From assembly GCA_965113315.1 (NCBI GenBank), contig OZ220366.1: a stretch of DNA of 64,000 nucleotides; one strand, given 5' to 3'. The first letter of the stretch is position 1. Each line of letters starts with the position of its first letter. Under the pieces are notes generated by a model. It made no database searches. It was not told the origin of the DNA and was given only the letters and a program-made list of their open reading frames with translations. This DNA comes from Podarcis vaucheri (lineage: Eukaryota). Below are positions 8,880 to 31,449 of the stretch, one piece after another. The position numbers and the translations under genes are program-made.

Positions 8880-10738
<1,859 letters not shown>

Positions 10739-13514
10739 TAGTGGTTTTCCGCCTCCTTAGGGGGCCACTGCATTCAGCTTCAAAGGTAGGTCAGCTAACC
10801 CTACTGGGGTTAATTCTGTCGAGGGGGTATCCTGGACGTGTGCCCCAAAATCCTGGTCTGGGGGCACCAGTTGGCTTTTAGGAGGACCCGAAAGAGAACC
10901 ACGGGCTAAATGGATCTTTGGGGCCAATCCAGGGGCTTCTTAGGGTCCTACTCGATTGTCAGCGGAGGCTGTAGTGAGCTCTCGGGGTTGCCTTGGAGAG
11001 GCCGGCGTTTAGTTCTCTGCACATAGTTAGAAAGACACTCAGAGCTCGATTTGCAACGTTTTGGGTGGCCACTCTCTGACACCACCAGCTGAATAACTTG
11101 TTCAGCCCCACGGACGCCAAGGCAGCCGCGGATCGCGACCAGCCCCCCCCCGCCCCCATTCTCCCTTGTTCCTATGTTTGTTAGTTGCAGCGAAGCCCTT
11201 TGCTTTTGGGAGCGATTTCCGTGACTTTTTGTAGGACTACTCTGAAGTTTCAAAAATTGTAGATTGTGGCCCAAGAACCCCAAACGGCGTTTCTTTAAAA
11301 TAACTTCAGTGGCCTTTTGCTTAACGAAACGTGTTGAACATCGGACTGAGAGTTCTTTAATACCAGACACGGAAGCCTGAGTGCAGAAATAAAAGGTATT
11401 TGCAGCAATCTGCAACGCATTTAGTGCTGGAGTAGTCCTGCTGAAGTCAAGAGACTTGCAGGAGAGAGATGGCCATTGCAGCCGGGACAGTGAAGCACTT
11501 TCCACCATTAAAAACACAAATCCTTCCGATGTCACATGTACTGCATCTGATAGGACTTCTGTGGGAGGAAGACAAGACAGGATTTGTCAGTCAATTGTCA
11601 GACAATTCACCATAAAAGCACAGCAAAATAAACCCTTTAACTAAACTTCGCTAGCAATATTTAGAAGAAAGAGGGGGAGATGTGTGTAACGTTCCAGAAA
11701 AAGGGGAGATCCGTGTTTTAGCCATGACTGCTGGGGTTTCCACCAACAGTCCATGGTTTGTCAGACTCAGGGAAGAAAAAGAAAACTTTGGAAGATTACA
11801 TTTTGTATCTCGCGATCTAGGGGGGAAAGTGTCAAGTTTTCCAAGATCAAAGGCCTACCAACACTACAGATTTGCTCGCTTGTTGCCTGAATCGTATATA
11901 CCATCCCGAAAATCGTGCAGGTGAAAAATAGACAACAGTCCTGCTCTCCGTATCTTTAACCAGCAAAACAAGCTGAATTGAGCAGATAAAGGACTCGACA
12001 GCCCGAGGGCGATCGAGTGGGGAGGAGCTGGAAAGTAAACTCACTTCCCTCCAACCTGAGGCGTTATTACAATTTTTTTTACTTTATGAGTCATATAAAG
12101 CAACGGCGCTTACTCCTAAGTAAATGTGCTGAGGATCTAAGTGAACAGATTCGAGAGGAAATGACTGAGCAGTGCAATTCTATGCGTGCCTATTCAGAAG
12201 TGTGTGTGAAATTGCAGCCAAAAGAACTTTATTTGAAGGTTAAGGCGGAATGATTTAATTTAAGCTTTCTTATACTGTAATACAGATCAGCTGAATTGGG
12301 GGTTCGGAGAGTCGCACACGATCTCAAACCCGCACTCGCAAAGCCAGCACCCTAAACCCATTTAGACTCAGACGGTCCCAGTTCAACTCGGGGTGTCTCC
12401 AGGTATGGCTTTTTGCAGCCTTGGAAAAGTGCTCCCAGTTAGAATATTGTGCTACATGGTCTGACTCAGTAATAAGTTGAGTTGTGCGCTTAAAAAATAA
12501 TAATAGTAAAGTCGATTGATTGCAATCTAAATACCTTAGGCGCAAGGTCTGCTATTCTAGGATATCTACTTTAAAATGCGCCCTACTGGAATTAGAGGGG
12601 CCCCTGTGGCGAGATCAGTGGCAATTCCTAGGTATACGATTAGCTAGCAGTATAACTGGACTTGCAGTACAAACTGAAAAGCTGAGATTTGGCCCAGGAA
12701 GCCCTCTGGGTCTCTCTCGCTGGGTCGCCTATATTTGAAAGTGGTGTAAGTAAACTCTCCACCGCAGCTTATCCGCAATGGTGTGGATTTCGCCGGTTTC
12801 CCTTTTCGTGCAGCCGCCTGCAGGGCCGCGCTTTCGGCGGAAACCCCTCCTCAGCGCCAGCCTTGAAATTGACAGGAGTCGCAGGGAGATATGCGTCTTA
12901 GCCTCCGCTGTAAACAAGCGCTCAGCCGGCTTGGGTGGTGGGCAGCGCCAGCCGGGAATCGAGCTGAGCTGAGCTGACGGCAGGAGATATAATTAGTTCC
13001 ATCCAGCGCCGCAGACAGCTGCTCAAAGCAGCCTCTCTGCTCTGATAAGCCCCGCGCACTGCTTTAAATAATGTTCATTCTCCTTTACAAACAAAGAGAG
13101 ACACACGGAAAGAGATGACTTACCCACCTCTATCCCTCTGGAGGCAGGGTTGCGTCAGATTAAATGTATTGTCCTTGCGTTTTCTTCCCCTACAATCCCA
13201 AACCCTAAAATAAAATGCACCTGCCATTTGGTGGAGATTGCCTTGTGGCTTGGCTTACTCGCTTGAGTTTTCTAACTTCCGCATTTCGTAGGATCACTTC
13301 CTCCAGAGATGGGAAAATAGACTTTCATTTTTCGTTTTATGGTTTAACAATCGCTGGGTCAGAAAGGAAGTCACCCTTACACCTGAGCCGCTCTAATGTT
13401 GATAGCAGACGTTTTATTTGTACACTCGGATTTCGAACAAACTATCTAGTTAAGAGTGGTTTGAGACAGGTTTTTTTTTTGCTTTGTTTTGTATCTCTCT
13501 TCTTAAGACCAGAG

Positions 13515-13750
13515 TCCTACGCATACTTAATAAAAGTACAGTTTTATGAAAGTTGCCGAAAGTAAATGCCATTGAGTTAAATGGAACTTACTCCCGTGAA
13601 AGTATGTCTAGGATTCTATGCACACTTAATTAGGAGTATGTGCCATCGAAGTCAAAGGGACTTACTTCTGAGTAGGCAGGTATAGGATTGCACTGATGAT
13701 CACACTGAAATCAAGGGGGCTTGCTTGCAAGTTGATGTGCTTGAGGCTGG
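13515..13750. repeat. Cluster of ~85-bp palindromic mini-elements (tandem/nested copies)
   Basis: aagtaaatgccattgagttaaatggaacttactccc...taggatt followed by ggagtatgtgccatcgaagtcaaagggacttacttctgagtag...ataggattgc. Confidence 0.75.
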
Positions 13751-14754
13751 TATTCTATCAATGTTGATTATTATCTGAGCAGTGTACATGGTGTATTACA
13801 CTGTAACAAATAGTTCCCTGCCCCAGGAAGCTTACAGTATAAATTGTTGTCCTATTTCTATCCTAATCCTTTAAAAAGCTTATATTGAAATCAATTGGGT
13901 TTACCTTTTCACTCCTGCTTGCGGGCAACTCTGGCCTGAATGAGGAGGCCTGTTCTAATGCGCTCATTTTGCATCTGATGCCTGGAAAGCCGAGAGTTTT
14001 GTTTGTTTTGTTTTCATTTGATCAAGCGTTTGCTATAGCTGTAAGCACACTATAAAAAGCCCCATCCCGTCGGAAGGAAGGCAAGTAGCTTCGGGAATCT
14101 GCTCTTCCCAAGTCACCAGTGCTCCTGCTGGCTAAGAATTCTCTTTGGGATATTTCCCCTTCGCTTCTTAAAATTAACTCAGAGAAGAGGCATTGTGGGA
14201 GGTTGCTTAAGAATAGCCAGCTACATCATTTCAATTTCTTTGGCTAGATTTTCAGGCAAAGCTGCGGTTCCTTCAGCAAAAGGATGCCCTTATTTCTCCA
14301 GTCCTCGGCATTTTATTTCATAGGCTTTGAATCCAAGGTTTCATCCCCCCCAAAAAAAAAACGCCACAATCCTACACAAGGAAGCAATTAGTCCCAATGA
14401 TTTCAGTGGCAGTTTCTTAGTGGACCCGAAACTGTCCGTAATCCCTGCTCACTTGAAAAGGTGCGTTTGAGCTGCGCATTTTTCAGTCGGAGGAAGTAAC
14501 AACCGGACGTGCAGTTTGTTTTCACGCTTTTTCTTCCCCCTCCTCTGCCTTGATAACTTGAGGCAGTTTGCCTAAAGAAAATATCCCAAATCAAGTGCTA
14601 GTTTGGCCTGTCTCGAGACCGTGGAGGTTAAGAAAAGAATAGACACCTCAAAAGCCCCGATTTTCCAGCCCCGTTTAAGACGAGTTCTGGGTGGGTGTTA
14701 AGGCGATTGCATCTCCAGCCTCATTCGGCTTGTTCGGCATTTCATAAAGTTCGT

Positions 14755-15205
14755 TGGTGTTACTCGGGAGTAAGTACTTTGAGGATTGTAGGGAAGCCCA
14801 TTAAGTTAAACAGAGCTTACTCCCAGGAAACTGGGCATGGGATTGCAGCCCTAACATTGACTGCCAGTCAGACTCTAAAGGCGTATACCAAGTTGTCCAA
14901 CCGAAGCACCAGGGGGAAAACGTTTGCCAGCATGTGCGTGTTCCTGCTGCGGAGATATACCGGCAAAGTCTAGCTTTAACAAATATCCATTAAACAGAGA
15001 ACATCTGAACTTACAAAAGCTAAGGACGCTGCAATACTTAGCATGTCTAGTCAGAAGTAGGTCCCATTGAGTTCAATAGATTTTACTCCCAGGGAAGTGG
15101 ATTTAGGGCTGCCGCTGATTCTGTATTCCTGGGCATTCCTAGAATAAATCCCACTGGACTCAGCAGGACTTACTTCCCCAGTAAACAGTGGGAAGATTGG
15201 GCTGC
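14755..15205. repeat. Cluster of ~85-bp palindromic mini-elements
   Basis: e.g. 15028-15115 gctgcaatacttagcatgtctagtcagaagtaggtcccattgagttcaatagattttactcccagggaagtggatttagggctgc. Confidence 0.75.
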
Positions 15206-16285
15206 TCCTCTTTCTCCATTATTTCATAAATTAAAAAGTGTGAATAAAGTACCAAGTTAACAGCAGGGAGATTCGATAATTCTGCCAGGCTTACAAAAGG
15301 TGATTGTAAACTTTGAAAAGATTCCCCACCTATCTTAAAACATAGGAATTGAGTAATATCGGAGAGATAATTTTGATCCATTTTTGTTCAATTTCTTCCG
15401 CGCTCCTCCTAGAAATTAGCCAGACTCCCTGTGTTGAGAAGTGAAGGTGGACAAATATGTGAGCGATTTTGTGTGCGTGCGTGCTCCGATTTGGGATGAC
15501 TTCACTGCATCCCAGTTCCATCCTTCAGCCCTTTCAGGAAAGGATGGCTTGATAATAACATTTTAATGAAAGAGGAATAAATTTGGATAGTGTCTGGTTT
15601 TTTGAAGGGAGCTGGTTCTGGGGGTCGCAACTGGCCTGATCACTTTTTCTAAAGGACCGGGAAACCTGGAGGGCAATTAAAATTATAGGGGGAAACAATT
15701 TTAGGCCCACGGATTCAGTTGGATTTACTTCTAAGTAGACACGGTAACGATTGCTGTGTAAGCCCTGTTGAATTCAATGGGGCTAAGTTCCAGGTGAACG
15801 GGGTTAAGACTGGAGCCTCAGCTCTCTTCAAAACAGGACGTGGCGGTCCCCCGAAACTCCCTTTGGGACTATAAATCAATGTAATCAGGTTTATTAATTG
15901 CAGGGTTTCTGGGGGCGGGGGGTGGTTCTTTTAACTTTCGTATTCAGCAGTTCTTTTCAAAGTTGGGGATCTGTTAAGTACAGTAGGAAAGCGGAAAGTT
16001 CGGTGGGACCTCCCTGACGGTTGTTCCTCCTTTGTCCCCAGGAAAAACATGTTGCAAACCACAAGCTATTTATTGCAAGGGGTTTCGCTTTCTCTCTGTC
16101 TCTGTCGTTGCTAGCAACTCACAATCGTCCGGGATGCGTGGAGGGAATGTCACTTCGGGTGGATTTGGTTTTCTTAAGCAAAGAGACAGAAAAGAAAAAG
16201 GAAGGGCGGGGAGAGAGAGAGAGAAAGAAAGAGAGATTATATGCCTTTTCGTGTATCTTTCAAGAACAAGGGCTCCGGCTACGTG

Positions 16286-16607
16286 CATGGGTAGGCGAAC
16301 TAAGGCCCGGGGCCCGGATCCGGCCCAATCACCTTCTAAATCCGGCCCGCGGACGGTCGGGGAATCAGCGTGTTTTTACATGAGAAGAATGTGCCCTTTA
16401 TTTAAAATGCATCTCTGTGTTATTTGTGGGTCTGCCTGGTGTTTTTACATAAGTAGAATGTGTGCTTTTTATTTAAAATGCATCTCTAGGTTATTTGTGG
16501 GGCACAGGAATCTGTTCATTTCCCCCCCAAAAAATATAGTCCGGCCCCCCACAAGGTCTGAGAGACAGTGGACCGGCCCCCTGCTGTGAAAAGGTTTGCT
16601 AACCCTG
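16286..16607. mobile_element. hAT (Charlie-like) MITE with internal ~70-bp tandem duplication
   Basis: Termini catgggtaggcgaact / gtttgctaaccctg; GGCCC subterminal motifs; duplicated gtgtttttacat...tttaaaatgcatctct...gttatttgtggg at 16370-16430 and 16439-16501. Confidence 0.7.
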
Positions 16608-18218
16608 TAAGGGTTTCCAGGCCTTTATAACCAGAAAATCCCACCAAAACTGCCGAGATTCAGAGTTACCAGTCCAAAAACAGGATTGCAATCTGCTACC
16701 GACAGCAATCACTTAAGAGTGTCCTATGGCCCAAATAAATACATTAAACAAGAACAAAACCACCTACTCCCCCAGTTTGCGGATTTCTCTAGACGTAATG
16801 GTTTGTATGGTGTGCAATAAATGCAAACGCAACTCTATATGGAATATTAATTTAGATTCGCCCGTATATAATGTATCGAAATACAGTAAATGTCTTCGCC
16901 CCCCCCCCTTCCTTCCTTTTAAAATATGGCACTTTCCAAGAGATCTGCTGCACTTCCCTTCTTTTTCTGCCTGGTACTTAGGAGAGGTTCCCGCAGCAGC
17001 CTGGCCGGGCATTTCTCTTGACTAGCGGGGGCGAAGGAAGAAGTGTGGTTGGGGGGAGTTGAGGAGCAAGGAAACCGTAGCACCGCTGGGAGGAGGAAAT
17101 GCCTTTGAACCCCCGGCTCCCCTGGGCTTAGGCAGCCCCAGCCTCCGCTGAAGCCTGATCCTGCATGAAACAGGTGGCCGCTAAGGCCGCCTGCGACCCC
17201 GAAGAGACGCAGGAAGGCCGCCGGCCTCATTGAACGCCCTGGGTCTTACGTGCAAGTAAACCGCCTTTATGAGCGGGCCCTTTGCGGGCTGAACGCGGGA
17301 GCGCTGGCCGACATAAATCCTGGCTCTTCAGCTCTTACAGATCGGGGGATCAGACCGAGAGCCTTTTCAGCAGATGCTGGCGAGGTTTCTCGACTGACCC
17401 GGCGGAGTCCCCGAGCCCCGCAGTGAGAATCCCCAGCTGCTCCCCAGGATCTAATATCGCGCTCGACTTTCTCCCCTTTCGCCCCTGAGCTTTTGCGCTG
17501 ACCTTCGTGATCCACGACTTAAAGTCCAGGCAGGAGGCAGAGACCCGCGTCAGATCTCGGCTCTGTAACACCACCCGCCGCTGTGCTTGGATTTTGTGTG
17601 TGTGTGCATGTTTTCATGTCCGACCGTTTATTGCTGTAAAACAAAAGTATAGAACAGGATGCCTTCATTTTCCTTTCTTCTCCCTCCTCCCTTCCCCCTC
17701 TCCGCGGGTGTTTACTTTTCTTTTCCCTCCACAATAGGAGAGGGGGAAAGAGGAACACTTTAGGAAGTAAAGCGCCCCCCCCCATCCAGGTCCCTCCAGG
17801 TTGGGGACACGCCATGGTTAAAGTGTGACACCGCGTAGCGAGGAAAATGGACATTTAAAAACAGCCCGCTTCGTAATGATTAAACCAAAAGGGGAGGCCA
17901 GCTGCTTAATGAATGACTTTTTTAAAAAGCAAGCAAACCTGGAACCTCGGTCGCCTTAATCCAGAAAGAAAGGCATACATATGATAACGCTTTCCTAGAG
18001 GTTCTTCCTCGCATAAGCCCCCGTTTATAATCGTATAGTTATCAGCTCAAAATCAAATACAAAGGTGTCATAGCTGCATTGAAAGTACCCCCCCCCACGG
18101 GAATCCTGGGAACTGTAGTTTATGAAGGGTGCTGGGACATGTAGGGAAGGAGGGAAAAACTACGGTCTCCATGATTCAGTTGCTTTGCTTTAAATGTATG
18201 TCGTGCGCGCTTTAAATA

Positions 18219-18444
18219 CAGTGGTACCTCGGGTTACATACGCTTCAGGTTACAGACTCTGCTAACCCAGAAATATTACCTCGGGTTAAGAATTTTGCTT
18301 CAGGGTGAGCACAGAAATCGTGCAGCGGCGGCGCGGCGGCAGCAGGAGGCCTCATTAGCTAAAGTGGTGCTTCGGGTTAAGAACAGTTTCAGGTTAAGAA
18401 CGGACCTCCAGAACGAATTAAGTACTTAACCCGAGGTACCACTG
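18219..18444 (+). mobile_element. Tc1/mariner (Tigger/pogo-like) MITE, 226 bp
   Basis: TIRs CAGTGGTACCTCGGGTTA / TAACCCGAGGTACCACTG; TA TSD both sides. Confidence 0.9.
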
Positions 18445-19379
18445 TATCCTGCTCTGCTAGCACTGCTCCATCATTGCCATTTGCCCTGTTGGTTAACTTA
18501 CATGGGGAAATAGAAAACGGCGCGTGGGGCTCACAACCCCTCTCTAAACGCAACTACTGCGGAGGACTCGGGCTAGAGAGGGGCAACTGGGTAAATTGTA
18601 GCCTGCGGACTTAGTGGTCTTCACCTCTATTAGGATGCGTTACATGCTATTTCAAAATGTGACCCTGCTGCGCTTGGGGGGCCCTCCAGATTCTGCCCTG
18701 ATGGCGCTTGGTTTGGGGCGCCGCCAAGGTAGTGGTGGGGAACGCCACAGCCTGGTTAAGCCGGAGGACTCTCGCACTAAGAAAAAGTAAGTCAGTGTGC
18801 TTAGAATCCAGAGTCCAGTTCGGGTTTAAAGACCTTTCCACTCGATCTTAACGGGACTCGCTTCATTTATAAAGGTATCCCGCTTCTGCCTTTCACGTTT
18901 AGTCACCTCCCAGCCCAGCTTCAGAATACTAAAACGCCCGTGACGCAACTGTGGATCGCTTAAATCAAAACTTAGCCGTCTTGCACAGAACCACCAAGCA
19001 GTAGAATCCGAGGGCTTTGTATATTCACACACACTCCCTCTCTTTCTCTCTCAGCTGAAAAACTTCATGCACCTTTTAACGTGCCATGAGCACAAACCCC
19101 TGTTTACTATCAATCAGCGTTTGCCGAAGGCAGCCGTCTCCTTCTGTAGCAGCGGGAAAAACCTGGAGATTTTCAGCTTTCCTTGGCGTTGGCTGCTCTT
19201 ATTCAGTCAGAACTGAAAACCCGCAGCGCATGGTCTTATTACTGTTTCTGGTTTTCTTATGAATATTGCATGATCAATTATATTACACCTATTTAATCAC
19301 TACTTCTAGAGCAGATTAAAGCAGAAAAGCTAACATTACTTTACTTATGGGTAAACATGTTTAAAGATTATAACTCTGC

Positions 19380-19560
19380 AGCACAATCCTATCCACACTA
19401 ACAGTGTAATCCTAACCAAATCTACTCTGAAATACATCTCTGTGAGTTCTGTGGGACTTACTCCCAGGTAAGTGGAGTTAATTGTCGCCTAACCTGGGAG
19501 CGAATCCCTCTGAACTTAATGGGGTTTACTTCTGAGTACACATGCTACGGATTATACTGT
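19380..19560. repeat. Cluster of ~85-bp palindromic mini-elements
   Basis: caatcct...tactctgaaata...gggacttactcccaggtaagt, then a reversed copy acctgggag...ggggtttacttctgagtacacatg. Confidence 0.75.
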
Positions 19561-19729
19561 ATTAGAATACTTTTATGCAAGTAAGTGACAATGAACGCGC
19601 TTGCTCTACTGAGGTGTTAGGATCTGGGTGGCAGAGCACAGGGTGGTTGCTGTTGTTTTCAATAATTGCACACCAATTTTTTAAAATACGCAATTTGGTC
19701 GTGGGGAGACTTTCTTGAGCAATGCAGTA

Positions 19730-19955
19730 CAGTGGTACCTCGGGTTAAGTAATTAATTCGTTCCGGAGATCCGTTCTTAACCTGAAACTGTTCTTAACCT
19801 GAAGCACCACTTTAGCTAATGGGGCCTCCTGCTGCCGCTGCGCCGCCGGAGCACGATTTCTGTTCTCATCCTGAAGCAAAGTTCTTAACCTGAAGCACGA
19901 TTTCTGGGTTAGCGGAGTCTGTAATCAGAAGCGTATGTAACCTGAGGTACCACTG
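19730..19955 (-). mobile_element. Tc1/mariner (Tigger/pogo-like) MITE, 226 bp, inverted relative to the 18219 copy
   Basis: Same TIRs, TA TSD; roughly 90% identical to the reverse complement of 18219-18444. Confidence 0.9.
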
Positions 19956-20874
19956 TACTGTAGTATGTTTGGGGAGGGAAAGCGGGGCTGACAGTACAAT
20001 CCGATTCGTTCCTACCCAGATGCGAGGCGTTGCTGAATCCAAAGGGACCTACTCTCAAGTTAAATGTTTGCTGCAAGCTATTTTCAGCCGGGGTCCGAAG
20101 GTCCCAATAAAAACGAGAGTACCCCTACCCCCAGCACTCGCAGAGTGCCATCTCCTCCCTCCCGTGTAGTCTGGGCTCCTATTTATCTGACATTAAGGGC
20201 AGAGGCGTGTTTGCACCTCGAATAAAGGAGAGGAAACTTTAACGTGCTTAATTCTTGTTTGTGTGACGGCTGGTTAAGACCCAGAAGGACCGCTGGCCTT
20301 TCCTAAAACCGCCATCCTAAACACCCGATGCTCTCGGGAAATTGGATTATATATTTCCGCTAGAGCTCCTGGACCTTTCTATGCCTGTGGCTCCCTCCTG
20401 CCTATGCCTTCAGCCAGCCTTCACCAACCGGGTGCCCTCCCGATGTTTTGGTCCAAACATCTGGAGGGCAACAGCTTGGCGAAGACTGGCTTAAGGCATG
20501 TGGGCGGGGGCGAGGGGGGCAAGCCAGCCCAGAAAGCTGGTGGTGACCCTAGCTGAAATATGCAGTAAACCGTGCTTAGGATCAAGTGTCAGCGCTATCA
20601 GCAGTTTCCCGTCGGATTTAACTCGCTCTGGATGATACTTAAGGGAGAGAGGCGCCCTCCGCTTCCCTCCTTCCGCGACACCCAGCTGCTTTCCTCTCCT
20701 GTTTCTCCAGCCCCCCGGATCCCTTGAAGGACCGCCGTGAGCGAAGGGAGGGTAAGGGGTGTCTGGGACAAGGGGGAAGGAAGGAAGGAAGCCCCCTCCG
20801 AGAGGGCAACCCCAGACTTCCCGAGACAGTCTTTGCGCCAGACTTCCACGTTTTATAGACCCCCAGGGTTCCAG

Positions 20875-21090
20875 GCAGCGCAATCCTATACATCGCTCAG
20901 AAGCAACTCCCATTCAATTCAACGGGGCTTGCTCCCAGGTAAGCGGGGCTAGGACTAAACCCGACTGAGTTAAACGGGACACAGTCCCAGGTAAGTGACA
21001 TTACTGCCTCTCCCCCCCCCCCCACTTACCTAAGAGTAAGGCCCATTGGATCCAGGGGGCCTTAGTCCTAAATGGGCAGGGTTAGGATCG
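20875..21090. repeat. Cluster of ~85-bp palindromic mini-elements
   Basis: gcagcgcaatcctatacatcgctcagaagcaactcccattcaattcaacggggcttgctcccaggtaagc...taggact plus two partial copies. Confidence 0.75.
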
Positions 21091-24000
21091 TTAGCCCCTT
21101 GGCTCATTCCAATAAAATATTTAAGGGGACTGAACACCCCCCCCCATGATGGACATTGCCATTCAAGTCATGTGATCGATTATGCGGGGTGGGGCTTACC
21201 TGCCCCCCTCCCCAACATTTTATTCAAGAGGGCAGCCCTAGTTAGGATGGCAGCCTTGACCTTTCAGCAGTTTCTCTCCCTGCCCCACTCGATTCAAGCG
21301 CTAAATGAAAAGGAGTCGGGACTGGGTTGGGAGAGCGCCATTCCTCGGCCCGCGGGCCCTGCTTGCAGTCAACGGGCGGAGCGACGCCGCGCAGAGCCAG
21401 GTTTGGCGCCTGCTGCTAAAAGGAAGGGAGACGTTTATTTTTCCTGGGAGCGGAGATGTCTTTCCTCTAGCAGGCGATTTCCCCTTAGAGAGTCACGGGG
21501 CGCTGCTGCTGCTTGTTCTCACCAGGCAAGCAAACAGGACTTGCCAGCAGAAAGAGAGAGAGAGAGAGAGAGAGAATTGTCTTTGGTCTGCCGCCAGTTT
21601 TTCTGCCCCAGAAAAGGTGCGCTCTTTGTTTGTAGATGGCGGCCTCGCTCGCGTGCCGCAGTAGCAGCAGCAGCGCCTTAGCAGAAGCGAGATCTCTCGC
21701 ACAGAAGCCAAGGGCCTCTTCTAAGATGGCGCCTGTCACGTGCAGTTTTTTTTAAAAAGTACTTAATGTGGGGTGGGGGGGTGTTGAAATGCCTGATTCA
21801 TCGGACGCCTTCTAAATCGATTAAGTTCGATCAATTAATCAACTAAGGTTGCGATTCCTCCGTTTCTCGCTGAATTCGGTGGGATTTACGGTACTTCTAA
21901 ATTTATAGTTGCGTTAGGATCGCATTGCAAATGTCGCCTTCTACAACCCGTACAGGTAGTAGGATTGCTCCGGCTCCGGATTTCTTAAAGTGGATCAGAT
22001 ACTACTACATAACATACATATCGGTATTAATCATCGTCGTCACGGACTGGCGTCAGAATGGGACTTCCTATCCTTTCAAGCTATGAGTTTTTAAAGGGGC
22101 GATAGCTTCAGGTAAATTAATCCGGACCAACCGTAACAGTTACGAGTCATATACAGTACCTACAAAGACGAAGAACCAGCTTTTCTTCAGTCTCCTACTT
22201 CCCCTTCCCACGCAACCCTTTGGGTGCAGAAGGTCTGAAGTCTGAAGAGGGAGCTTTCCAGACAGTCTGAGAGTCGCCGGGCCGGTCGATGCGCATACGC
22301 CTTTGCCAACAACCAGCAAAAATAAATCGCGGCCCCATCGCCTTACTCCCGAGTATGCTGATTTCATTATATACTCCCTTATGCCCACTGGCCCCCGGAA
22401 GATCCTCGGGGATCCTTCAAAGTGCCGCTGATGGTTCTGATTTTGGGGCCAGGGCCGATTCTTTGGAGGCTCCTTCCGCTTTCCGGAAAGCGAGCGCTTC
22501 CAAGCGAGCTGTTCCAAAAAGAAGCCTTTAGCACGTTGTTTACCTGGGAGACAGACCCAGCTCTCAAATTTAAGCAGGAATTTAAACACACATTTGTCTG
22601 TGAGGAAGCCCTGGAGAATTCTCAGAGTTCTGCAAATAATCCCTGGTTATGAAACAACAACACAGAAGAGACGGACGCTTGTGCTGGGTTCGGGGGTCTG
22701 TTTCTGGGGGCGTCCTTGTTTCCCTGGGATGGGAGACCCTGGCGTCCAGTGTTTACATTTTAAAGAGAGATGGAGGCTCAGCCCCTCGGGTGGAAAGTAA
22801 CGCGGGTCAACTCCGCGGTTCTCTGCAGTACCTGACTTAGAAGGAAGTTCTACGTACATTTAAAGACCCTCATTTTAGGAAGCACGATGTGGATCCCAAA
22901 CGCATTGCTGCTATTCGTGTCATGCGCTTGTTTTGGATTTATATGCCGCCTTCGCCCGAAGGTTCAAAGCCGGCTCGAAAGGTTTCCTGTCGTTGGAAGA
23001 CTCTCCCCCATCCCCGTGTCTCATATATCTGGTGGGAAGAGGAGAAGGAAGGTGGTGGGGACTGGGGTGCGGACCTTTAAAATATGTACTCAGTTCATCA
23101 AATACTCAACAACGACAGCAATCTTCCCCCACATGCCGGGAAGATAACAGTTCCTCTGGGAAATGGGGAAGAGGAGAGACTCAGCTGAGCTTAGTTGAAT
23201 CGTCAAGTCGGTTTCGTTGTAGCAAAACTGGCTGTTTCTTTTAAGGCAGCCTTTTAGGATGGAGATGTAAAGAGGAAGTCACCTCGGCGGTCATTCCTCA
23301 ATAGAGGCTACAGCAGCAGAGCAGGGAAAGGCAAGCAAGGACGACCAGCCTCCTCCCTGCTCCTTCTTTCATGTCTTCTGGGAGTTATTTGCCAAGCCAA
23401 TCCTCTACGTGCCAAATAAAGGAGCTGTTCTCCGAGGGGGAAAACCCTCACCATGTACGATAAATAGAATACTAATAAAAAAAAGAGGTAGAGGTTACAC
23501 TAGGATGCAAGCTAAAGGATTAAGCAGCCCACTTCTGCTTCGAAGAAATGTCGGAGTCCCTTTATTTATTATGACCAAACAAAATGTCACAAAACAGCGA
23601 AGGAGCTTTTGACTCCTCCGAAACGCTTTCATCAGCCTGTTTGTAAAGTAAGGCGGAGAGGTTTGATACTGACCATAACTTCTCTATTGGTCAAAGGTGC
23701 AGCTTTGTTGTCTTGCCTTAGGAGGGGCACGTGGCTTTTGTTGCGGGGAGCACTTTTGTGGGGAGGGGGCAGAACCGAAGTGATTGGTCAGTTACTTAAG
23801 TATTTCTATTGTTTTACTTGATGGGGGGGCAGCTGCTCCCCTGCCCTCCCTTGGCTATGTCCATGAAGGGACATGGAGATGGGGTTGCCAGGAAGATCGC
23901 CCGCACTTCAGTATTCACCGCTACATCACTGGCGACACACACCGAACCTCACTGAATACTGACTGTGCTTCCAAGTAAACACTAACAGGATTGCGTTTTA

Positions 24001-24506
24001 AATAGCTAATGTCGCAGTTTCTGTCAGCATTAGCCTAAACACTTCGGCTTCATTGTTTTTTGGATCGAGCTCTCTCTGGCGACATGCACCTGAGCTTTAT
24101 TGGTGGGAGCAGTGGGGCAGTTTTAGACTTTGGTCTTATATGGTCCCGTCTCTGAATGCTAATAACGTGCGTTTTGATATCAGCCCCCTACTGATTTTGT
24201 GAGTGGGACTATGGAACTCTGCCCTAAAGCTCTGCCGTCACCGTTGACAATGCGACTGGAAGAATTCAGTTTTGTACTGGAGAGAATCTTGCAACACTTA
24301 AAAATCTTCGGGAATCCCGCAACTAATGTCAAATGATACAATGCAAAGGAGCCCGTCTGGAGGATTTTGGTGCATAGATCTATTGGCTTCAAGAACAAAC
24401 ATGCTTTGTATTTCCTGATCGTCAGCAGACATATTAGCATCAAAACACACACTCACAAACAAAGATTTAGCATTTTGCTAACTCTGTTGGCCGTTCTTAT
24501 GATGTT

Positions 24507-24759
24507 GAGAGCCAGTGTGGTGTAGTGGTTAAGAGCGGTAGTCACGTAATCTGGGAAACCGGGTTCGTGTCTCCGCTCCTCCACACGCAGCTGCTGGGTG
24601 ACCTTGGGCTAGTCACACTTCTGTGAAGTCTCTCAGCCCCACTCACCTCACAGAGTGTTTGTTGTGGGGGAGGAAGGGAAAGGAGAATGTTAGCCGCTTT
24701 GAGACTCCTGAAGGGGAGTGAAAGGCGGGATATCAAATCCAAACTCTTCTTCTTCTTCT
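24507..24759 (+). mobile_element. tRNA-derived SINE (Squam3-type) with (CTT)n tail
   Basis: gagagccagtgtggtgtagtggttaagag (A box)...ccgggttcg (B box)...gtgaccttggg (CORE-like)...tcttcttcttc. Confidence 0.85.
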
Positions 24760-25427
24760 ACTTATGGCTGCCAGGATGACAACAAAGTTGAAACTGCTGA
24801 TGCCTTGGTTGAATGTCACGCCGAGGGATGGACTTGGCAACGTTTCTGTGTATTTCTATATATTTTTCTAACCGAGTTAAGACAGCATCTCTATGTATAA
24901 AGACGTAACCGGGTATACGTGGGAATGGAATTTGTAGCCCTCTGGAAAAGGCTTTGAGATAAGCAGTAGTGGAGAGCAGTAGCAAATAAATCTACATTCT
25001 GTTCCTTGGGAAATGCAACAATGGATTCATGTCTTCCTCAAAATGCAGCTGGGTTCTGCTTGATTATTAAAGAAAAAACAACACGATTTGCTTGTACAAA
25101 GAGGTTAAAAGGTATATGAGACAGCATTTGCTGAAGCCCAGGCGATAGTTATTCAGACAAAAGGTGCATGTAGAAATAACTCTGAACATGCTGATAAACT
25201 CGTACCACAATGTGATGGGGAGAATAAAGAAAAAGAAACGCAAAGAGACAGTGAACCCCGCAGAGCCACTTAAACACTAGCTTGTCAGTTAACAGATGTT
25301 TAATATAAAACGATGTTTGATTTCTCTCTCTAGTGCTTCCCTCATTTGGCAACGCCGGGGCGCGATCTCTAAACCACAGTGAGTCGATGGAAGGTCTCCC
25401 ATTCATGTTGTTCAGGAATTTTATTTT

Positions 25428-25660
25428 CAGATAGGTAGCCGTGTTGGTCTGCCATAGTCAAAATAAAAAAATTCCTTCCAGTAGCACCTTAAAGACCAAC
25501 TAAGTTAGTTCTTGGTATGAGCTTTCGTGTGCATGCACACTTCTTCAGATACACTGAAACAGAAGTTGCCAGATCCTTCTATATAGTGAGAAGGTGGGGA
25601 GGGGTATTACTCAGAAGGGTGGTGGGAATAGGAGATTGGCAGATAGCTGAGATGAGCCTG
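25428..25660 (-). mobile_element. Penelope-like retroelement terminal (pLTR) fragment
   Basis: ggtagccgtgttggtctg...gtagcaccttaaagaccaac...gagctttcgtg...cacttcttcagat, which I recognise as a sauropsid PLE end; internal inverted repeat gttggtct (25443-25450) / agaccaac (25493-25500). Confidence 0.75.
25515..25552 (-). ncRNA. Minimal type I hammerhead ribozyme motif (PLE-associated)
   Basis: Minus strand GUAU-CUGAAGA-A-GUGUG CAUG CACAC-GAAA-GC-UC-AUAC: conserved core CUGANGA/GAAA/UH, stem I GUAU:AUAC, stem II, palindromic AGCU in place of stem III. Confidence 0.75.
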
Positions 25661-26173
25661 ATAGCTATATCTTTTCCTTTTAAAAGATGGGAGTGTGGCT
25701 CTTAATTTCTATATCTTTGTGACATCACTTCTTCAAGATACGGTGTTTACAACGTAGTCTTGCCTGCCCCCCCCCCCGCGCCCTGTGCGTTCCCATTGCA
25801 TGCAGTTCCCTCATTAGCAGAAAAAGTGGACGGGGCACCAAGTGCTCGTGGCTCTCCATCAGCTTGTATAATTAGCAGGCGCGGCGCAGCAGGCGAGAAA
25901 GCAGGTACCGAGCTGCGGGTCTTGAAAAGCCGGCGAACAATGGCTGGCTCATCTGCTCGGAAGAACGGACGCCTCTTTGAATGTGGGGGTGGCTCAATCC
26001 ATAAACCTGTTAAAGCCAAGTCTTAGCTTTAACAAAAAAAGGGGGGGGGGGAATCCAAAACAAAACAAAAACACACCGCTGTGTAATTCGGGACCCAGTT
26101 GATTTCTGTGAATATTCTTGCAGCACAATGTACTCTCGAGTGAATTGCTGCCCAAAAGGCGTTGCTTCTCGAG

Positions 26174-26428
26174 GAAGAAGAAGAAGAAGAGTTTGGATTT
26201 GATATCCCGCCTTTCACTCCCCTTCAGGAGTCTCAAAGCGGCTAACATTCTCCTTGCCCTTCCTCCCCCACAACAAACACTCTGTGAGGTGAGTGGGGCT
26301 GAGAGACTTCACAGAAGTGTGACTGGCCCAAGGTCACCCAGCAGCTGCATGTGGAGGAGCGGAGACACGAACCCGGTTTCCCAGATTACGTGACTACCGC
26401 TCTTAACCACTACACCACACTGGCTCTC
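26174..26428 (-). mobile_element. tRNA-derived SINE (Squam3-type), inverted near-identical copy of 24507-24759
   Basis: Reverse complement differs at only ~3 positions by eye; (GAA)n tail at 26174-26190. Confidence 0.85.
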
Positions 26429-28220
26429 TTTCGGACTGTGAGCGTAAAGGGGTTTGCACTTCTCCACGAATTTGCATGGCGCTGGATGGCAGTCAGACGC
26501 ATGCATGCATTTCCCGCTCCGATTCCGAGCTTGTCTCGCAGTGTCTCCAGCGCAGCGACCCTGGGAGCAGGTGCAGCGGGAAAGGCTGACTGACGAGTCC
26601 CCCTCCTGCACAAGATAAGGAGCAGTTCACATCAGCAAGAAACCCTTTTTAAACAGCCTTGGAAAGAAGGCTCTGTCGGGACCACCAGAGAAAAGGTGCA
26701 GCTTTGGTTTTCCCCACACCTCCATAGGGCAGATCGCGTTTGTCCTCTATTTACCTGCCTGGGGTCAAGGCTCCAGTCTCCGGAAGAGAAAAGCAAGAAT
26801 ATGAATATCTCGTGCGCCACCCGCAGGCAGAGCTGGAGAATGACAGGAGGGAGGCGCCGCCACGGATTCCACGGGGCTCTTCGCTGTGCTTTCTGGGAGC
26901 CACGCGGAATTCACAGTGGAATGAATGGAGCGAGCGCCGCAAGCCTAGGCGAGCATTTTAGGAGCCTCGGAAGAGGCAGCGCTTATCCCGGCCTTGAGGG
27001 CTGAAAGTGAATTTGTGCTAGAACCACCACATGAGTGACCTTTGGCTATTCTTAACCGCAGTCACCTTAATTAAACTTGCGGATATCCCACCAACTGTCC
27101 CCCGCCTCCCGCATGGACTGGCCATGTGTGCAAAATGGTATTAGCCCTCCACGCAAATTAATCCGAAATAATTACCAGGTTTTGGTTCTGCATACGGACG
27201 TTGGTTAGCATCCCCGCAGCACTCACAGACATACAGGGAAAGGGTGGAAATAAAAACCCATTCTGTGAGTGCGAAGAAAAGTTAATAACTTCTCATTAAG
27301 ATGAGTATTGTGTAACCACGAATATGTTACTGTGTGTTTACAATGCTTCTGGACAAGGAAGGTACCAGGCCTTGATAGTTACTCTGGAATAGCTAATCTG
27401 GGTTAAGAGGGGTGTACCATCTCCTTACTCCTTGTGAGGAAGTGGGAAGATTGCTTTCTACAGCTCTTTTGCTAGGGTTAACGGGATAAATTCTGTCTTT
27501 TTGTGGCGCTCTAAAGTCATATACATCATTATCATTAATCTCTTCTACTATGGAGCTATTGCTGCACAGAGATGTCACCAAAACCATGCTCTCCAGCATT
27601 GGATAAAGGAAATGTGCCCCCGTTGTGAATCAGGCACTCATAATCGTGGCGCTCAGAGAAAATAAGATTTTCTCCTCTTGTGAAACTGTCCCAAAATCAT
27701 ATTTACACACCTAGATCGCACCAACCCCTTATCATATATGAGGTGCTGTACGAATTGGTGCTATCTATTAATTAATTAATTAATTAATTACACCGTATAA
27801 AAGTGATAAGAACCCAGTTACACAGGCAATATTGTACCAGACGGATAAGGATTCAAAGGAAAGAGATGCCCAGGGGAGAACAAGACCTTCACACCTTTCT
27901 TGCGTCTTATTAAAAGCCGATTTCAGAGCAACATGTTTCTGATTTAGCTCCGGGCGGAGCGGTCTTTTGCAGCACGATTTAAACCAAGCCTTCATGCAAA
28001 TCTTTCACTCCGTGTCACAAAACCGTTATTAGCAGAGAGCAGAGTGGGACTGGAGAGAGGGGGCGAAGGGCGTGGGAGAGATTATAGTGTGTACAATCTA
28101 TGTAGGCTGCAGTACACACCAGATATTTAAAGCACAGATCACATCCCCCCAAGGAATCATGGGAACTGTAGTTCGAAAATATAGTTCAGTGAGGGGTAAA
28201 ATGCAGTTTGTGGGGTTCTT

Positions 28221-28460
28221 CATAGAATTGTAGAGTTGGAAGGGACCCCGGGGGCCATCTAGTCCAACCCACTGCAATGCAGGCAGCTCAACTAAAGCAT
28301 CCATGATAGATGGCCATCTGACCTCTGCTTAAAAACCTCCAAGGAAGGAGAGTCCACTCCCTTCCGAGGTAGCCAGTCCGTTCCACTGTTGAACAGAAAA
28401 TTCTTCCTGACGTTGAGTCGGATTCGGAATATCCTTTCTTTGTTGAAACTTGAAGCCATG
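28221..28460 (-). mobile_element. CR1 LINE 3' end fragment, inserted into a small palindromic MITE (28110-28510)
   Basis: catagaattgtagagttggaagggacc...atctagtccaacc is the reverse complement of the CR1 3' terminus. Confidence 0.8.
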
Positions 28461-28753
28461 GTTGTGTGTGTGTGTGGTTTGAATATGCTTTAAAGGTATA
28501 GTGTGTGTAGTGTAATATTATGAGTTAAGGTTTATATACTATGCCAGTATACACCCAAATTGCATGTTTAGTCTCTGAACATTCTTTCAGCATAAAGATT
28601 TGGGCCAGGAAAGCATGTACTGGGTACATATAGAGTGCCGTTGCAGCTGCTGTTTGAGGGGCTGGGCTGGAGCTTCTAGGGTCCAATGGGCAGGCCAAAG
28701 CCCCGACATCTTCAACGGTGGCCTGGTGGGGTGCGGGTCTTCCTTCCCTACAG

Positions 28754-29185
28754 CAGTGCTCCCCAACCTTTTTATCGCCGTGGACCGGTAAATGTTTGAT
28801 AATTTTTCCGTGGCCCGCTTGTTTTGAGCTGAGTCCCCCCCTCCGTGCACTTAGCTCACGGCAGCTTCTCTTCAGTCCCCGCGTCTCCAACCTCGAGTCC
28901 TCAGTCCTCCCGTGGCGCCTCCTCCTCGGCCAGTGGTGTGAGGTTTGCCTTTCGGCCAATCAGGAAGCGGGAGGACCCGCTCCCTAATTGGCCAGGAGGA
29001 GCATCAGTGTAACAATAGCGAATTTTCATTCACTATTGTCACACAATGGGCGGGCTTGAGAGGGCGCAATGCTCTGCACCTCGGCCGCCCGCCACAGTGA
29101 AATGATTTGAAGTTCCTCGGGCGGCCCAGTGCCGATTGATCCATGGACCGGCACCGGTCCGCGGCCCGGGGGTTGGGGAACACTG
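28754..29185. mobile_element. hAT MITE A (oldest element of the nest)
   Basis: TIRs CAGTGCTCCCCAACC / GGTTGGGGAACACTG; left TSD ccctacag, right ccctac(ctac)ag after removing the nested element. Confidence 0.8.
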
Positions 29186-29188
29186 CCC

Positions 29189-29755
29189 CAGTGGCGTAGC
29201 GTGGGGGGTGCAGGGGGGCCCGGTCGCACCGGGCGCAACACCTGGGGGTTAGGGTTAAAGGTAAAGGTACCCCTGCCCGAACGGGTACCCCTGCCCGAAC
29301 GGGCCAGTCTTGACAGACTCTGGGGTTTGTGCGCCCATCTCACATCTATAGGCCGGGGGCCAGCGCTGTCCGGAGACACTTCCGGGTCACGTGGCCAGCG
29401 TGACAAAGCTGCATCTGGCGAGCCAGCGCAGCACACGGAACGCCGTTTACCTTCCCGCTGGTAAGCGGTACCTATTTATCTACTTGCACCCGGGGGTGCT
29501 TTCGAACTGCTAGGTTGGCAGGCGCTGGGACCGAGCAGCGGGAGCGCACCCCGCCGCGGGGATTCGAACCGCCGACCTTTCGATCGGCAAGCCCTAGGCG
29601 CTGAGGCTTTTACCCACAGCGCCACCCGCATCCCTGTCGCCACCCGCGTCCCTGTTAGGGTTAGGGTGTTAGGGTTAGGGGGCGCAAATCCACGGGTTAG
29701 GGGGCGCAAATTACTTGCCTTGCCCCGGGTGCTGACAACCCACGCTACGCCACTG
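29189..29755. mobile_element. hAT MITE B (interrupted by a Sauria SINE)
   Basis: TIRs CAGTGGCGTAGCGTGGG / CCCACGCTACGCCACTG; perfect 8-bp TSD CACTGCCC at 29181-29188 and 29756-29763. Confidence 0.88.
29256..29652 (-). mobile_element. Sauria SINE, full length, young
   Basis: Reverse complement of gggacgcgggtggcgctgtggg...ggttcgaatccc...(ACCTTT)n tail; ~98% identical to 60001-60366. Confidence 0.92.
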
Positions 29756-31366
29756 CACTGCCCTACCTACAGGGTGACTTGTGGCACATTTTTAGCTTAG
29801 AACTGAAACCTTGGGAGGATTCTGCAAACAGAATTATTCTTCTTCTCTGATGCAACCTGTGGCGTTGTTGCTTTCGGCAGCTTTTGCACATGGACTGCTG
29901 CTTTCGTTACTGCTAGTAATTTAGGAGAGACGAGTTTCCCGAGGACAATGTCAGGGGGGGGGGGGGACAGGATCTCCGAGGAACCGTCTGGAGTACTCAT
30001 TTTGTTTTGACCCGAACCCTGTTCGAGGGGTTCTGAAATGGCCGTGTTGAAGTTAAGGGCATTATGTTATGACCTGTCTTTGGTGAAAGAGACTTCGGCC
30101 ATCCGAGCACGGTGTCGATCACTATTTAAAGAATAATTATTATTTTAAAAGCAGCCGAAGTGAAGCAGTGGTCCACGCTCTACAGACAACCAGGAGTGTG
30201 AGCGCTAAGGTGTTTCGGTCCCCTTAAAGAATAAACGGTTATGTTGTTTACGAAAGCGACAGCCCTATTATCTGATTTCTTCTACTACTACTCCCAACAT
30301 CCCACTACTTTTGTGGTAGTTGGTCAACCTCTCAGTGGGTCAGGAGGTGGGTCCGAGCAATGCCATTCATAATCAAGAACCTATTTTCATATTGATTAAA
30401 TGTGTAACATTGAAGGAGATCCGTGCCCGGGATAAATAGTGTGAGATCCCATCTACCCTCAGTCTAGACTTCCTGCTGAAGGGACTTCCGAGGGTGGAGG
30501 AAACAAGGGGATTTCACGCGGCTGAGGGAATTTTCCCTCACAGGAGAAAAGGCGGGAAAGTTAGTTCAAGTTATGTACAGCATAGACCCATTAAAATAAA
30601 TAACTTCATTGATTTCACTGGGTCTAACTGATTATTTCTTAGAAATCTAAAGGGGGGATATAATATGTCCAATTAACAGGAGCTGCACGGTTTGCTAGCA
30701 AACCGTTCCGCCCAAAGTCAAGTTATATAGATGGGGAGGTCTTGAATCGGAAGGATTTGTGAAAGGGGCAAATGGATGGATTTGCCGAAGCGACAGCAGC
30801 GGGGGTTTGAGTGAAGGGACCAAACGTTTGCACTTTAAAGCACCAAGGCAATAATACTGTATAGCTGGGCTGCCTTTTGCCTCCGTAGCCTCCCTTCGCA
30901 AGGGCTTGTGGGAAGATGGCGGGGGCGGTGTGGGGGAAGAGGAGAGAGAGAGTACAAAACTCTTTTTCAGGGCGTCTTTAGCGAGGTCCCCTCGGCCGAT
31001 TTCAGGGAGGCTTATGTTACTTTGTGGGGGATCACCCCCCCACCTCTAAAATGGCAACTGAACCCTGAGTAACATGTGGGCCGGCCAGGCCCTTTCGCAA
31101 CGTGGCGGCCTTCAGCTGAATCTAAACCCTAATGTCATGGAGCTAACTTTCCTGAGGAAAAGACCACCTAACTCGCCGAGAAACCCGCTCGGGGAACTGC
31201 ACAGGCAGGGCAGGGAGGCCCAGCTCCCCCTAATATGACCCAGCCAATGTTACGCTGCTTTTCTCCCTCTGCTGCAGAGGGAAAAGGCCAACTTGCACCT
31301 CCCGCTAGTGCTTCAGATGAACTGTATTCATGTGCGTTAACTGAGGCTTCTCGGTTCCTTTTCTAG

Positions 31367-31449
31367 GTCTGGGAGACGCCTGGGGCCAGCCGAGCAGATT
31401 AGGCCCCTTGGATAATGTCGCGAAGGAGCTGGGCTCGCATTTGCTTCAG
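31367..31449 (+). CDS. SIM2: SIM2 coding exon 2
   Basis: ccttttctag|GT...; (G)[27 protein letters not shown]; donor |gtagag; 83 nt. Confidence 0.97.

Follow-up and report, generated by a model that had tools for sequence, protein, structure and literature searches.

The stretch of DNA analysed here, 64,000 nucleotides from Podarcis vaucheri (hereafter the window), contains exons of a SIM-family gene on the plus strand, recognised by bHLH and SIM_C domain matches. Judged by exon motifs, the end of coding exon 1 falls at 10631, and exon 2 occupies 31367-31449. A biotin-protein-ligase exon lies about 12.5 kb beyond the end of the window on the opposite strand and, given the linkage of SIM2 and HLCS, fits SIM2 rather than SIM1; a 95%-identical SIM paralogue is located on another contig (C17). 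Another open frame, of 623 residues and containing an integrase core domain (L160:4280-6148, minus strand), is likely an LTR retroelement within an intron of the adjacent gene. The initial annotation had placed a hammerhead ribozyme antisense to SIM2 intron 1, a position that holds as the first coding intron, with the gene on the plus strand and the motif on the minus strand. The features of the locus are the following.

10632..31366, plus strand: intron between coding exons 1 and 2 of the SIM2-like host gene (domain matches, exon boundaries)
25424..25658, minus strand: whole insertion, 235 bp (the DNA runs X3, X4 and X9 each have a single contig in which 25423 is followed directly by 25659)
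25428..25660, minus strand: 5'-truncated pseudo-LTR (pLTR) and tail of a Penelope-like element (29 other loci; relatives with RT and GIY-YIG)
25578..25585, minus strand: TATA-like box, 31 nt upstream of 25554 (from sequence; putative promoter)
25550..25557, minus strand: putative transcription start of the element RNA (35 of 99 sampled starts; 1,325 genome-wide at 25552)
25515..25552, minus strand: minimal type I hammerhead, with cleavage predicted at 25519/25518 (sequence layout; 7,715 exact copies)
25527..25540, no strand assigned: stem II and loop, a perfect 14-nt palindrome (sequence)
25428..25458, minus strand: tail of about 31 nt with the element ATG (25455-25453) and first nine codons
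26176..26428, minus strand: SINE-like repeat, separate from the insertion (its inverted counterpart at 24507-24759 shares 99% identity)

The initial annotation had missed that the inserted fragment extends beyond the motif and includes a TATA-like box of its own as well as the element's start codon. This stub of a Penelope-like element (PLE) retains the TATA-like box, the hammerhead, a U-rich stretch and the tail, and a search of the window finds it to be the single Penelope-like copy within the 64 kb, in agreement with the earlier description of a lone copy. A 2-nt microhomology is present at 25659-25660, and the 3' junction carries four additional A. The junction sequence shows no target-site duplication, unlike several related copies, in which duplications of 11-16 bp are visible by eye.

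Contigs of four DNA runs (X1, X3, X4 and X9) were compared over 24800-26160. In three of the four (X3, X4 and X9), one contig each runs from 25423 straight into 25659 and thus displays an empty site; the X1 contigs enter the element from both flanks, which corresponds to a filled site. Although X3 shares its organism label with the carrier X1, its flanks are as diverged as in other species, and we therefore call the insertion lineage-specific rather than polymorphic. The empty site in three of the four runs indicates that the insertion is recent.

Two SINE-like copies of 253 bp, inverted and 1.4 kb apart (24507-24759 and 26176-26428), bracket the Penelope insertion; in the SIM2 pre-mRNA they could pair with each other to give a long double-stranded stem. 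Additional inverted repeat pairs are found at 29284-29634/60002-60352 (98%) and 18217-18446/19728-19957 (91%).

The parent family

In the same genome, 7,715 exact copies of the 38-mer were counted (3,877 + 3,838), and none of its reversed control. A relaxed core pattern gives 10,677 matches genome-wide, and with 7,715 of them exact the copies are nearly invariant; among the first 100 of the 10,677, C17U is the one variant that is common, and the other point changes are scattered, in keeping with a young family. A DNA search of the same genome returned 140 candidates, and the 40 that were scored yielded 43 matches at 98-100% identity. Across 212-242 nt, 29 other loci align to 25660-25428 at 97.9-99.6% identity, and two other copies are 100% identical to the window copy across 196 nt. 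Given 7,715 copies genome-wide, the chance expectation of an exact 38-mer copy is about 9% for the 21-kb intron; it is 26% for the 64-kb window.

Coding relatives are found at two loci. In L031 the pLTR stretch directly follows a frame with RVT_1 (28.4 bits; cut-off 29.6) and GIY-YIG; this copy has a variant base at the position equivalent to 25554. In L094 a truncated frame is followed by a pLTR, a 910-residue frame and a second pLTR, which together form a partial tandem. The 910-residue frame matches RVT_1 (E 3.3e-12) and GIY-YIG (3.3e-05), opens at the ATG equivalent to window 25455, and encodes a protein with DKG, YIDD and a C-x4-C-x2-C linker (residue 770). The single ORF of EN+ Penelope-like elements, with RT and with GIY-YIG at its C terminus, is found in L094 and L031, and the window copy holds just its first nine codons. 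EN+ PLEs are further described as having partial tandems of pLTRs, inverted 5'-truncated copies and an optional tail of 30-40 bp (PMC8557442), and we found partial tandem pLTRs (L094), inverted 5'-truncated copies and an optional tail in the present family. According to the same source, CX2-5CxxC in the RT-EN linker marks the Neptune/Nematis clades; judged by this linker motif, the element would belong there rather than to Poseidon, the clade of the Anolis element PAc.

The full-length arrangement of pLTR, ORF and pLTR with the uninterrupted 910-residue RT and GIY-YIG frame lies at L094:2677-5900 (G000:C25), where the element's own hammerhead carries C17U. L031 and L032 (G000:C34, ~40.00 and ~40.35 Mb) form a 9.7-kb inverted duplication with 99.6% identity, which holds the Penelope copy and an ANF_receptor frame. 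L036 was considered as a candidate full-length element and rejected, as two separate stubs are located there.

Where the copies begin and end

The 5' ends were sampled in 99 copies, with an exact 37-nt anchor (11,428 anchors genome-wide) and the window copy as reference; the sampled loci lie within the initial 6.1 Mb of contig C1 and comprise most of the first 100 listed loci and a few more. None of the 99 starts within 25514-25523, the interval that spans the predicted cut. Starts were found at 25524-25549 in 26 copies, at 25550-25557 in 35 (including 12 at 25554 and 10 at 25552) and at 25558-25659 in 14, and the remaining 24 extend at least as far as 25660. Of the 99 copies, 47 retain the tail. 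The 3' ends of the family, seen in the mapped DNA and RNA runs, pile at 25428 and at 25459-25465.

Genome-wide, 12 copies start at the predicted cut, and two nearby positions used as controls have 9 and 5 starts, whereas 1,325 copies start at the hammerhead's first base, 25552; these counts demand three non-matching upstream bases, a filter that passes only part of the true ends everywhere. Outside the count of 12, another 24 copies start at the cut via an inverted junction in stem I, which fits microhomology but could alternatively derive from cleaved RNA. Starts at the cut site therefore total at most ~36 counted cases among more than 11,000 copies. Since nearly all copies cross the cut site, their template was presumably uncleaved RNA, which suggests that uncleaved RNA is what gets inserted, in agreement with the published cleavage results on the Anolis element and on minimal hammerheads described below.

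The pile of starts suggests, from DNA ends only, that the TATA-like box would direct a start of the element RNA 31-33 nt further down, at 25552-25554. Alternative sources of these 5' ends are a splice-acceptor-like motif at 25554/25553, although just one of the 99 copies starts at 25553, and template switching in stem I. Putative TATA boxes have been described in rotifer pLTRs (PMC3846280), whereas the Penelope promoter of D. virilis is internal and TATA-less (PMC2377424), which counts against a TATA-driven start. A frequent CAG-flanked class among the 1,325 copies was considered as a deletion subfamily or spliced form and rejected: an upstream pLTR was found in 0 of 20 loci, which were picked by flank class and are hence a non-random set. 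By eye, about 14 of these 20 loci have inverted junctions, the rest being plain or slipped. Slips and fold-backs at the 5' junctions of L136, L140, L141, L143 and L147, all within the hammerhead's first 30 nt, are consistent with template switching at the RNA 5' end.

The hammerhead and its known counterparts

Re-reading of the letters bore out the hammerhead layout given in the initial annotation. Along the minus strand from 25552 to 25515, a 4-bp stem I precedes the CUGAAGA core, an extra A and a 5-bp stem II with a CAUG loop, after which GAAA, GC, UC and AUAC complete the motif. C17 falls at 25519, in agreement with the cut proposed earlier at 25519/25518, where cleavage is predicted. The core of the minimal hammerhead (C3UGAnGA9, G12AAA15.1, U16.1 and H17) is present together with stems I and II, as are an extra base after A9, a G10.1-C11.1 pair, a palindromic 15.2-16.2 and the lack of a loop 3. 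The conserved core, a short stem I, the base between A9 and 10.1 and the latter three features are likewise described for the minimal hammerhead ribozymes of Cervera and De la Pena (2014; PMC4209133), as are location in a pLTR and occurrence mostly as dispersed single truncated copies. Unlike the Schistosoma examples given there, with a stem II of 7-8 bp, stem II here has 5 bp, and another difference is that stem II and its loop form a perfect 14-nt palindrome. The near-invariance of the copies resembles the recently invading D. virilis element and differs from most families in that source. Read from its letters and context, the window motif is a minimal, dimer-type hammerhead of a Penelope-like pLTR, with predicted self-cleavage.

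Minimal hammerheads have been reported in PLE pLTRs of turtle and snakes, among others (PMC4209133), and hammerhead-bearing PLE stubs are thus of a described kind, reptiles included. In the same work, cleavage was absent for one minimal motif on its own and weak for dimers (PMC4209133); dimer cleavage of hammerheads has also been described by Lunse et al. (RNA Biol; as cited in the review PMC6765202). Cofolding of two copies of the window motif is predicted to yield -30.6 kcal/mol in total, via a 14-bp palindromic stem II duplex (-25.2 kcal/mol, vs -8.2 for a pair of hairpins). For the 4 bp of stem III, the helix required by the active dimer, the predicted value is only -2.5 kcal/mol. The predicted probability of stem I is ~0.66 with the tail and at most 0.01 without it.

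Similar to the present family, PAc (Poseidon_Ac) of Anolis carolinensis is a squamate PLE with a pLTR hammerhead, has two fixed 3' ends that bound a tail of ~30 nt, and shows no RNA ends at the cut (Frangieh et al., 2024; PMC11167929). Its cleavage needed the element's protein, was dispensable for insertion and left no RNA-seq ends; uncleaved RNA was the insertion substrate in vitro, where two RT start sites bound the tail (PMC11167929). The two elements differ in that the PAc start codon lies inside the hammerhead and its RT starts 111-118 nt into the ORF (PMC11167929), whereas in the present family the ATG follows the motif 60 nt downstream and the tail includes 28 nt of the ORF before it ends.

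Tandem arrays derived from pLTRs have been discussed as non-LTR retrozymes (Li, Clavereau and Pollet, bioRxiv 10.64898/2026.07.22.740005). Like these, L037 of the same family (L037:941-1403; G000:C1 ~5,631,940-5,632,400) contains five head-to-tail units of ~101 nt, each with an exact hammerhead; as this exceeds the two consecutive complete-hammerhead units that define a retrozyme, the array is retrozyme-like and a natural substrate for dimer cleavage tests. The window copy is, in contrast, a single pLTR fragment with a tail and no tandem array. Short tandems similar to L037 occur at L149 and L102.

Origin and role of the SIM2 copy

We believe that the motif is very probably a PLE pseudo-LTR hammerhead within a recent, truncated 235-bp insertion, and likely a passenger with no role at SIM2. 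In the proposed course of events, the element's GIY-YIG nuclease would have nicked the intron, and RT would have begun at the tail end (25428) on an RNA that extended into and past a pLTR lying downstream; it would have traversed the hammerhead, still uncut, and halted at 25660, where the 2-nt microhomology would have served to join the cDNA to the intron. In the parent element, transcription would start at the hammerhead's first bases, with the ATG ~100 nt further on, and RT priming would be internal, at either end of the tail. Short copies would then extend to the RNA 5' end, and longer ones, the window's included, would stem from a downstream pLTR. Cleavage by the ribozyme would require a dimer or assistance from the element protein, and cut RNA would rarely or never serve as an insertion template. 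If promoter activity is retained in the lone window copy, a short antisense RNA with nine element codons would result.

A more elaborate scheme, which builds on the predicted stem II duplex, strikes us as rather unlikely. Here the hammerhead would form the RNA 5' end, its palindromic stem II would dimerise RNAs head to head on a dimeric RT-nuclease, and cleavage would act as a cap-removing off-switch. Such head-to-head pairing, if true, would account for the mirror-image mini-insertions that are frequent in the family. An opposite-strand copy lies within 1.5 kb of 52 of the 99 sampled copies, and palindromic microhomology alone could account for the clustering of inverted junctions in the motif. 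If the dimerisation reading were true, the thousands of cDNA ends would be an in vivo record that only uncut RNA inserts.

Improbable to a greater degree is a young, active antisense unit with its own pLTR promoter, which would cleave itself in trans with one of thousands of identical partners and exert a modest effect on SIM2 in carriers. The window copy does retain the TATA-like box, the putative start, the intact core and the ATG; in Drosophila, 3' pLTRs of Penelope can drive downstream transcription (PMC2377424). A search of sequencing runs listed no RNA run among its matches, a result without bearing on expression. Family RNA is present on both strands in four RNA runs of a related species whose DNA run, X9, has the empty site, of which 6-12% each was read. 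However, these reads map to the repeat only and come from copies at other loci: 91-98% of the mapped reads continue into other loci, and the window flanks are almost uncovered. No pile of molecule ends was found at the predicted cut in the family reads of the four runs, a result still compatible with weak cleavage; the sole listed pile is at 25567, in one run. The activity of such a unit is further opposed by the weak cleavage of minimal hammerheads even as dimers (PMC4209133), by the cofold preference for the stem II duplex over the stem III helix, and by the orthologous site, which is empty in three of the four DNA runs. Presence at that site across related species would be expected of a ribozyme co-opted by the host. 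The earlier suggestion that the motif processes antisense transcripts of a developmental gene finds no support, given the same empty sites and the motif being one of 7,715 identical copies, and a SIM2-regulatory role for this hammerhead copy is likewise not supported.

That the motif is a chance hammerhead look-alike within a repeat is, in our view, barely credible, even though several observations taken singly would allow it. The core pattern alone is common in the window (11 matches vs 5.85 expected; 5 of 100 shuffles reach 11), the predicted fold of the isolated 38-mer is no more stable than those of shuffled sequences (z -0.44), and inspection by eye of the 100 listed variants of the 10,677 showed no compensatory changes. 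A covariance-model search, as suggested in the initial annotation, returned no hammerhead match from Rfam: in the whole window no family, hammerhead families included, reached its gathering score, and none of the 13 weak matches in 24500-26700 was to a hammerhead family. Nevertheless, the motif lies in the pLTR of an element with RT and GIY-YIG, where hammerheads are reported, and all four extra features that are listed in PMC4209133 or can be judged on one sequence are present. This placement, together with the 7,715 exact copies where the reversed control has 0, marks the motif as non-random. It is similarly far-fetched that the SINE at 26428 supplies antisense RNA to the ribozyme by Pol III read-through, as initially proposed, since the SINE, although oriented towards the motif with its tail end ~620 nt away, is an independent repeat of a different family and is separated from it on the minus strand by eight runs of at least four T (the first at 26157, with T5 at 26071 and T7 at 26040), at which Pol III terminates.

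The locus itself, a passenger insertion on our preferred reading, is a lineage marker in a SIM2 intron and little more. The family, in contrast, is a useful test bed, being young and including a full-length copy with an open frame. In the parts of the literature available to us, we found no genome-wide count of PLE copy ends relative to the cut site, and supplements of reptile alignments may list the family. More than 11,000 near-identical stubs record the points at which RT started and stopped, and the predicted ribozyme cut is a non-preferred end among them. These end counts bear on what PLE hammerheads do, and with them the finding made in vitro for Anolis is extended to a second clade, at the level of genomic counts.
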